Shown in pieces: positions 29,385 to 31,410 of a stretch of 64,000 nucleotides of DNA. Location of the stretch: NCBI RefSeq assembly GCF_006345805.1, contig NW_021829832.1:806001-870000 (forward strand), in the 5' to 3' direction. Source of the DNA: Octopus sinensis. Lineage: Eukaryota. The position numbers and the translations under genes were made by a program. The notes under the pieces are model-generated. The model had not been told where the DNA came from, searched no databases, and was given only the letters and a program-made list of their open reading frames with translations. How positions within the stretch are numbered: position 1 is the first letter of the stretch; every line of letters begins with the position of its first letter.

Positions 29385-31410
29385 TCAATTCCTTTTGGAT
29401 GGAGGAGGTCCTGGGGGTAACGGAATGGTATTATAAGTTTGAGAAGAATGGTTTGGTGGAGGAGGTGGCACAAAAAACAATTGGTTGTTTTGATTTGTTC
29501 GATCATAAGTACGTTGTCTCTTACTGGGCGGTTCATCAAACGTGCGATAGGATTGTCTATACCTTCCATCACTGTCTCCATTTCTAACCGAACCCCACCG
29601 GGAAACTAAGAATGACAAAATAGAAATACAGTTCGACTTGTTATTGCCCCGATTCTGCCACCCTCGGCTATCTCCTTGCACATTAAGAAGATCACGAGGA
29701 ACTTCCTGACTAGCTTCTCTCAAAATCTAAAATGAACGAACAAGAGTACTTTGATGAGATCGCCTGCTTGTCTAAAGTGTTTAGGCGTGAGGAGTGTGTA
29801 AGAAGTGCCACTTCGCTGTGCTCGGCCTGTCCTCCCAATTCGATGAATATAGTCCTCAGTGCAGTTGGGGAAGTCATAATTGACCACAAACTTTATGTCG
29901 TGTACATCTAAAGAAGCAAGTTTTAGTTGGTCCCCAATGGCATGATGCTGGTGAGTCAAGGAATATCCAAAACCCACCCACACCACACCCGTAATCAACA
30001 AAGCACAAACCGAGTCCCCGAGAAGCGACGTCGGTAGCCACGAGAATGGACAGTCTACTGTTCTTAAAGTCTAGTCATCGAAACACACAGCAATACCACT
30101 CAGAATGCGTTCTCTCTCCATTTGTGACTTGTCTCCGTGAATGGAGGCCGACCTGTAGCCGAGGTGATTAATATTCCACGACACTTCATCCGATTTCCGT
30201 TTGGTCTCACAGAACACGAGTGTCTTGTTCTGCTTCTCTTCCATTATACTCCTCAGAATAGACTGGAACCTGACAAATGAACAACTCGACTGACCGTTCG
30301 TCACGATTATAGTCGTTCACTACTTCCACAATCTGCGTAATATTGTGGTTGGAACAAATGTCGGGGTTTCCGATCGTGATGTGGTGGTACCGACTCATAA
30401 AATCGTCCACAAGTCGATGCACTGCTTTCGGCCACGTCGCAGAAAACATCAACAAACGACGATCAGGCTAAACAATCAATCAACCACATAACCCGAATTT
30501 GACCCAGAATAATTCGGATTTGAGGTTCGAAACCAAGATCTAACATTCGGTCAGCCTCATCCATAATGAGTAGAGAACACCTTTTCGACAAATCCACAAT
30601 ATCCTGTTCAAGAAAGTCAATCAGACGCCCAGGAGTGGCCACAATTATTTGTGCCCCTACACATAACTCAGTCCATAAACCCTCACGGACTTCCCTGATC
30701 TGCCTCCTTCTCTCTGCCCCTCCATACACACAGGCCACCTTGTAGCCCATCATCAAATCATTGGAGACCGCCTGCACTTGCTGAGCCAATTCCCTCGTCG
30801 GCACCAACACCAGAACCTTGAAATACAACAAAACTACACAACGATTGGACCGTCGCCTCTCCGGACAGGGGACATGCTAGCAATATGGTCCATGGCGGGA
30901 ATCAAATACTAAAGAAAGTCACCGAGGGAATAAACAGCCAATGTCTTCCCCGACCCAGTCTGTGCTATCCCAACCATATTGTAACCCGAAAGGGCCACAG
31001 GAATGGCTACACTCTGAATTAACGTGGGTTTGCTGTATTTTAGTTGGGCCAGTCGTCTGCTTAGAGCGTCTACATGTGGTGATGGCCAGTACGTGGGAGA
31101 TTCAAGTCTGAAAAAGTGGAGATGGGCCGAATTTCAGGTTTCCCAGATACTGTGATCTCATTGTCGTAGTAGAATTTTTTAATGTCACTCTAAAATAGAT
31201 CAATTAGTGAAAACCATAGGACGATCTGCTACAGAAGACGATACTCGGTAGTTGACGTGGTCTATTCTCTCTAGACGAATTTCATCCCAGTTTGGTCGCC
31301 TTATTTGTGAGCCTAACTTGCCTCTTGATTGTCCAGTATCTCTATTTATAATTATACGTCTGATTTTACCCACGAAAGGGTGCACGAGAATTAAAACCAC
31401 CACGACGCAT
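29385..31410 (-). CDS. DDX5: DEAD-box RNA helicase p68/DDX5/DBP2
   Basis: [84 protein letters not shown]. Confidence 0.95.

Follow-up and report, generated by a model that had tools for sequence, protein, structure and literature searches.

The intron that interrupts DEAD-box helicase genes of the DBP2/DDX5 subfamily has been tied to autoregulation since 1995. Iggo (1991) and Barta and Iggo (1995) reportedly described a DBP2/DDX5 (p68) intron conserved between yeasts and mammals, and Moore et al. (2011) are said to have found that the mammalian DDX5 intron hosts a miRNA. We take the yeast and human introns to lie at exactly the same codon as the intron described here. In the parts of the source available to us, intron 2 of dbp2 is reported to be conserved in position and length between budding yeast and higher eukaryotes, to be poorly spliced and to be present in human DDX5 (PMC4695336). 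A helicase-dead mutant of budding yeast is reported to relieve retention of this intron (as cited in PMC4695336), and in S. pombe dbp2 intron 2 promotes decay and recruits Mmi1 and the exosome (PMC4695336).

A second described system, the DEAD element of land plants, concerns a gene of similar kinship. In DRH1, a gene that has DDX5 as its closest homologue in humans, the fourth intron contains a 20-bp hairpin that hides an alternative 3′ splice site (bioRxiv 10.64898/2026.01.23.701338; PMC12218528). Most of the splice shift is lost in helicase-impaired mutants, and a C-terminal RGG/RG motif supplies part of the specificity of the system (bioRxiv 10.64898/2026.01.23.701338). As far as the available parts of these sources go, a sensing element has so far been defined only for this different intron, in land plants.

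Here we describe a DDX5/DBP2-subfamily gene in a window (the whole stretch of DNA analysed, 64,000 nucleotides deposited as Octopus sinensis) whose intron at the DBP2/DDX5 position is 103 nt long. Our preferred reading, to which we give a tentative probability of about 45%, is that the ancient intron has been shrunk around a predicted hairpin and may serve as a helicase-sensing splice switch. The DBP2/DDX5 intron and its regulatory role are already known, as is hairpin-masked helicase sensing in plants; what is new is a constrained miniature version of this intron with internal splice sites buried in a predicted hairpin. The features concerned are the following, with coordinates of the window and nt numbers of the intron.

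29385..31410, minus strand: DDX5/DBP2-subfamily DEAD-box helicase gene of 13 exons, 12 introns and 548 aa, from the gene model and splicing in run contigs
30071..30096, minus strand: 26-nt mini-intron adjoining the upstream exon, used as a neutral control, with 5 changes in X7 record 10
30011..30070, minus strand: upstream exon, ending in ATDVASRGL and the first base of Asp, from run contigs and the gene model
29908..30010, minus strand: 103-nt phase-1 intron, number 10 of 12, ASRGL/D, GT..AG, skipped exactly in runs X2, X3, X5 and X6
29939..29989, minus strand: predicted 51-nt core hairpin, nt 22-72, from pair probabilities, stable with exon context
29948..29973, minus strand: candidate nested 26-nt mini-intron within the hairpin, nt 38-63, predicted from its model score
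29948..29950, minus strand: CAG (nt 61-63) with the sole internal AG, a candidate 3′ splice site concealed in the 3′ arm, from the site inventory
29923..29929, minus strand: CAACTAA (nt 82-88), a motif resembling a branch point, with no change in X7 record 10
29750..29907, minus strand: downstream exon, beginning DVHDIKF, from run contigs and the gene model
29874..29876, minus strand: premature stop when the intron is fully retained or the normal donor is joined to the internal AG, lying 221 nt ahead of the last exon junction

The closest named relatives of the encoded protein, among the matches listed, are DDX5, DDX17, p62 and dbp2. Eleven of the twelve introns in the gene model measure 23-28 nt; nine of these eleven are directly visible as gaps in run contigs and two were deduced from gap totals. 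Contigs from four of eight sequencing runs, belonging to three studies (X2, X3, X5 and X6), show exact removal of the 103-nt intron (CT..AC on the plus strand), runs X4 and X8 have zero cover there, and X1 and X7 contain the intron as DNA. An assembly error as the source of the intron was rejected because the DNA of X1, possibly the source sample, shows 0 differences from it. A mobile-element or repeat origin was likewise rejected: a search in which common words were skipped gave one match in the assembly, and the contig has a single full copy. Gene model and exact splicing thus agree with the first-pass annotation, which had described a 103-nt phase-1 intron splitting ASRGL/D in a gene whose remaining introns are tiny. 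One of the short introns (30657-30680, minus strand) is 24 nt long, in frame and free of stops inside a seemingly continuous exon, an intron that annotation easily misses.

The window sits at positions 806001-870000 of a 959-kb contig, with a GC content of 37.8%, within an assembly of 2.7 Gb. We examined introns across this contig with a gene finder that was self-trained on it and seeded with the 11 short DDX5 introns; it recovered 11 of the 12 DDX5 introns, the recovery being independent only for the 103-nt one. It predicted 1852 introns in 175 multi-exon genes, of which 1741 are at most 34 nt and 79 at least 50 nt long, with a median of 25 nt. The 103-nt intron is four times this median, in line with the earlier suggestion that it escaped miniaturisation. 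Short introns also mark dicyemids, with a reported median of 27 nt in Dicyema sp. (PMC6543705) and a mean of 38 nt in D. japonicum (PMC6736024), and the GC content of the contig is close to the 36.7% reported for D. japonicum; further dicyemid genome background that fits such a cobiont comes from PMC13644364.

A second DDX5 gene in the assembly is the host's own: it lies on a 136-Mb contig, has long introns and is 57% alike in the downstream exon, for which it is the sole full-length match above 50% elsewhere in the assembly. Several intron positions are common to the mini-intron DDX5 and the host DDX5. Actin, Piwi-domain and UPF1 genes with mini-introns were found on other small contigs. One such contig encodes an innexin whose likeness to the relatives listed, mostly annelids and molluscs where named, is 39-47%. 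The public protein that is identical over 96% of the query stretch is labelled Octopus sinensis, and no Dicyema-labelled sequence appears among the 120 matches listed per query. The contig derives from a non-octopus cobiont, probably a dicyemid, a taxon to which the mini-introns and the cephalopod association point. A long-intron exception in dicyemid DDX5 was not found in a search of the literature open without subscription, supplements aside.

Comparison with the host and with metagenomes placed the 103-nt intron at an old position. The same codon is interrupted in host DDX5, by an intron of 2,370 nt that forms the longest gap between its aligned exons, and 4 of 80 metagenome loci are split there as well (55 are contiguous and 21 unparsed); the two complete metagenome introns are 465 and 1,138 nt long. 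The position conservation that the first-pass annotation had stated for the DBP2/DDX5 intron is therefore borne out by the host gene and these four loci, and agrees with PMC4695336. The intron described here resembles that of yeasts and mammals in gene subfamily, in the shared codon, in being by far the longest intron of its gene and in that retention leads to a premature stop. It differs in size, the host intron having 2,370 nt and the two metagenome introns 465 and 1,138 nt, and in that run contigs, from which rare forms drop out, show efficient splicing alone, against the low efficiency reported in yeasts. Derivation by sequence likeness to the host intron found no support (best E 0.17). 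The top hairpins of the two complete metagenome introns have no clear buried-acceptor pattern by eye, and a buried acceptor is not established as a general feature of this intron.

The host intron has stable local structures of its own. Its most stable local hairpin, at nt 385-450 (-24.9 kcal/mol, the best of many windows), holds a pyrimidine-rich CAG in its 3′ arm, and a second stable hairpin at nt 2096-2160 buries three GTAAG donors. These hairpins are candidates for a poison-exon switch in the octopus gene.

The core hairpin of the 103-nt intron consists of 18 bp with one G.A mismatch, a 2x2 internal loop and a 3-bp GGA/UCC cap, and its main-stem pairs have predicted probabilities of 0.91-1.0. 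Folding reproduced in full the pairing that had been proposed by hand, with nt 22-40 against nt 54-72 paired at 18 of 19 positions, six G-U pairs, the single mismatch, no bulge and the same cap. The whole intron folds at -33.2 kcal/mol, better than chance (z -2.85; 2/200 shuffles, and 14/1000 in a larger set), and the opposite strand gives z -0.66. Compositional skew was rejected as the cause of the fold: half-wise shuffles leave the intron at z -2.4 (16/1000) and the core at z -4.2 (2/2000), the latter value inflated since the core limits came from the fold, and the gene has no sharp skew flip there. Of 12,790 stretches of 51 nt sampled across the 64-kb window, only 6, at 4 places, reach -25 kcal/mol or better. 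A snoRNA or other known non-coding RNA was also rejected, Rfam returning a single chance match at E=6 and no box D CUGA or 3′ ACA being seen by eye.

The first-pass annotation had added an outer stem running to nt 9-89 that would leave about 22 nt unpaired, close to the normal intron size. This part did not survive: the outer stem has a pair probability of 0.52-0.59 in the naked intron and 0.00 once 60-150 nt of flanking exon are included, at 15-37 C. Because the outer stem is absent in exon context, the unpaired sequence outside the core hairpin amounts to 21+31 = 52 nt rather than 22, about twice the normal intron size. If formed, the outer stem would also mask the branch-point-like motif CAACTAA. 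Its core ACTAA occurs in 2.7% of predicted mini-introns, and the long intron therefore retains a consensus-type branch motif.

We then asked how other long introns of the contig behave, comparing 62 predicted introns of 50-250 nt from genes with at least 4 exons and a score of 20 (17 longer introns were omitted, and the set includes two duplicate pairs). Among these 62, most of which are unverified as predictions, the 103-nt intron ranks first in z as well as in energy per base. Their median z is -0.04, and 5 lie at z <= -2. Pfam alignments across the flanks, sought for 22 long introns with well-scoring flanks (40 exons scanned), show contiguous positions across just one other long intron, of 126 nt in a glycogen synthase gene, with z +0.2. 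Given the median z of -0.04 and the 126-nt intron without a stable fold, long introns of this contig do not seem to require stable folding in general, and the hairpin is particular to the DDX5 intron. A strongly folding long intron of CK2-beta was set aside, its 25-position Pfam gap showing that it probably hides an exon, and a strongly folding one predicted in a DAG-kinase gene is doubtful as an intron. The glycogen synthase intron (22203-22328, minus strand) is AT-rich and a second escapee from miniaturisation, one without a hairpin.

These data bear on another possible role, that of a splicing enhancer: the hairpin would bring the intron closer to the size preferred by the spliceosome, and unwinding by DDX5 would lead to plain retention and decay. 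The core alone would cut the effective length from 103 to 52 nt, regulation in yeast is reported to work through retention (PMC4695336), and a fold down to short-intron length is predicted for the long introns found in Giardia, Spironucleus and Trichomonas (PMC6679479). With those introns the one described here shares an internal stem-loop in a long intron of a short-intron genome. However, that study presents folding to about the short length as a rule (PMC6679479), whereas the intron described here is still twice as long as the mode when folded, and stable folds are absent from most of the predicted long introns, only 5 of 62 reaching z <= -2 and the predicted, Pfam-contiguous glycogen synthase intron lying at z +0.2. 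The outer stem is lost with exon context, and no retained form appears in run contigs. The same observations speak against the earlier proposal that folding offers the intron to the spliceosome as a substrate of about 25 nt. We consider shortening unlikely as the function of the hairpin, and note that it is compatible with a switch. Long introns of Mikrocytos were considered as a further folding precedent and dropped, since no mention of them was found in the available text of PMC10245619.

Splice-site masking, on which the preferred reading of a helicase-sensing switch rests, is suggested by the positions of the internal sites. Neither the buried internal AG nor the nested 26-nt intron was part of the first-pass annotation. 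Nine GT dinucleotides occur in the intron, none of them beyond nt 39. Its single internal AG (nt 62-63) lies in the 3′ arm of the hairpin at the lone G.A mismatch, with G63 paired at 0.90-0.95 and A62 unpaired. The nested candidate that ends at this AG outscores 8 of the 11 real short DDX5 introns and reaches the 70th percentile among predicted mini-introns, although its acceptor alone is weak (19th percentile). Within the candidate, the donor is paired to the putative branch region with a probability of 1.0. A nested candidate as good arises in 9.8% of 500 shuffles, and some nested GT-AG in 53%; with a chance of about 10% the nested mini-intron is not significant on its own. The buried AG and the nested intron together suggest masking of splice sites rather than shortening.

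By analogy with the plant and yeast precedents, the switch might work as follows. While folded, the stem would keep the sole internal AG and the nested mini-intron out of reach, and splicing would join the outer sites. Excess DDX5 would unwind the stem and expose the internal sites, whereupon the exposed AG or the nested intron might be used, or the intron retained, giving a stop-carrying transcript. Such transcripts would likely be removed by nonsense-mediated decay, and DDX5 would in this way limit its own mRNA.

Several properties of the locus are compatible with these steps. As the first-pass annotation had stated, retention causes a frameshift and a premature stop, the product having 435 aa instead of 548. 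In all four alternative products tested (the fully retained form, the one that joins the normal donor to the internal AG, and the two products of nested removal) the stop falls 221-270 nt before the last junction. A second UPF1 gene, with a 26-nt gap, is present on small contigs of the assembly. Its mini-intron-type domain is found in five copies of equal score, spread over four small contigs, which reflect either recent duplication or uncollapsed assembly. Other observations weigh against the switch. Once the nested candidate is excised, what remains is a GT-AG intron of 77 nt that might yet undergo productive splicing. Contigs of the four runs that show splicing contained no retained, alternative-3′ or nested-spliced form in any of the four, a weak objection given that contigs drop rare forms.

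Constraint on the hairpin was examined in run X7, which contains two related DNA sequences of the gene, records 10 and 11, about 95% and about 85% alike and at depths of 41 and 377. Two DDX5 relatives in one DNA run are what a mixed infection by two species would give. Record 10 covers the entire stretch in one piece. It differs in the 103-nt intron by 3 substitutions and a 1-nt insertion, all outside the hairpin, in the adjacent 26-nt intron by 5 substitutions and in the exons by 8, of which 6 are at third positions (16 of the 17 differing letters are listed with position). We took third codon positions and the adjacent mini-intron as proxy-neutral sites, and used the core limits that the first-pass annotation had fixed before the orthologue comparison. 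In this one orthologue the core has 0/51 changes against 11/95 at proxy-neutral sites (Fisher p=0.0085). The comparison gives p=0.0018 against the mini-intron alone, p=0.042 against third positions alone and p=0.052 against the intron's own flanks, and the whole intron against proxy-neutral sites gives p=0.061. The hairpin sequence is thus under constraint in one relative. Record 11 is 85% alike in the downstream exon and shows 30 loose letters of an intron of at least 37 nt, with CAACTAA near their 3′ end by eye. Further orthologous introns were sought, the best short fragment being 76% alike over 36% of the query, and none of the 80 metagenome loci is dicyemid-like (best 69%).

The first-pass annotation had named covariation in orthologous introns of related species as a check. 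The hairpin is unchanged in record 10; no covariation was seen in the stem, the core being invariant in the sole full orthologue, so that informative changes are lacking. The invariance spans all 51 nt, loop included. An unvaried primary sequence of this kind might also be expected if the intron were regulatory and read by another factor through a binding or decay element, DDX5 not being the sensor. The fission-yeast dbp2 intron 2, which is reported to promote decay, with Mmi1 and the exosome (PMC4695336), offers a parallel for such a factor. Recognition of sequence alone would leave aside the complementarity of the core, which exceeds that of half-wise shuffles in all but 2 of 2000, and no binding motif or factor was identified here; we regard this explanation as distinctly unlikely.

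The invariant loop weighs as well on the idea of a passive safety lock, according to which the hairpin merely hides a cryptic mini-intron for correct splicing, with no feedback. Productive splicing alone is seen and the internal sites lie within the stem, as such a lock would have it. A single base change at the AG, or a deletion, would however end the need for one, a lock accounts poorly for invariance across all 51 nt including the loop, and it leaves open why, of 12 introns, the one at a known regulatory site stayed long. We find it slightly less likely than an element read by another factor.

The stem might instead belong to a miRNA precursor, either intronic or, as the first-pass annotation had offered, a tailed mirtron. 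An invariant, G-U-rich stem of 18 bp with a loop region of about 13 nt, the reported precedent of the mammalian DDX5 intron and the presence of Piwi-domain genes on mini-intron contigs favour such a precursor. A mirtron has a splice site at one or both ends of its hairpin, whereas here the hairpin has tails of 21 nt (5′) and 31 nt (3′) and neither end is set by a splice site. There is no stable lower stem in exon context, and no Rfam miRNA family matched up to E=10. A weak exon-by-exon search (seven candidates each) placed RNase III domains only on chromosome-scale contigs and none on mini-intron contigs, and loss of Dicer/Drosha in the mini-intron organism is possible. The only mini-intron Piwi-domain gene with a readable motif has YRDGVGDG, a motif of the Piwi clade and not of the Ago clade. 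We give a miRNA precursor very little credence, and the tailed mirtron in particular is weak.

Returning to the helicase-sensing switch, we regard a sensor role as plausible because the plant DEAD element (DRH1/RH14, RH46) is a direct precedent. The likeness lies in a predicted stem, here of 18+3 bp, that carries the sole internal AG in its 3′ arm. Unlike the plant element, the one described here is in an animal, in the intron after ASRGL, with the AG in mid-arm at a mismatch, with a whole nested mini-intron and without covariation, and it is known from sequence and a predicted fold. A point against the switch is that the protein here has a single RGG, at its N-terminus, whereas the RGG/RG motif of the plant system is C-terminal. 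If the switch exists, it makes an exact prediction, namely junction reads at window position 29948.

A bolder version would hold that miniaturisation distilled a kilobase-long autoregulatory intron to a 51-nt hairpin that locks a complete decoy mini-intron, to be grabbed by a spliceosome tuned to 25 nt once DDX5 opens the stem, and that, with the buried acceptor in octopus, hairpin-masked sites may be a general helicase sensor of this intron in animals. This version as a whole is rather doubtful. We found no report of an intron hairpin with nonsense-mediated autoregulation for Rm62 in the literature open without subscription, supplements aside, and the literature on DDX5/DDX17 poison-exon autoregulation, by title and start of abstract, contained nothing on this intron.

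The 103-nt intron is a natural version with one constrained element of 51 nt, small enough for base-by-base dissection. The case points to the intron that withstands extreme shrinkage and to the likely reason, and it suggests that long introns in mini-intron genomes could be a cheap screen for regulatory RNA.

The public protein for the locus, P0001 (window 29720-31100 and beyond), has Pfam DEAD and Helicase_C domains, and its model is wrong: mini-introns were missed, exons skipped and an unrelated N-terminus attached. It is also labelled as an octopus protein. About 380 nt beyond the DDX5 stop, at 28932-29003, lies a near-perfect 70-nt inverted repeat with TGTCAC...GTGACA ends. It is among the most stable folds of the window, has related pieces in runs X5 and X6, and looks like a small non-autonomous DNA element.
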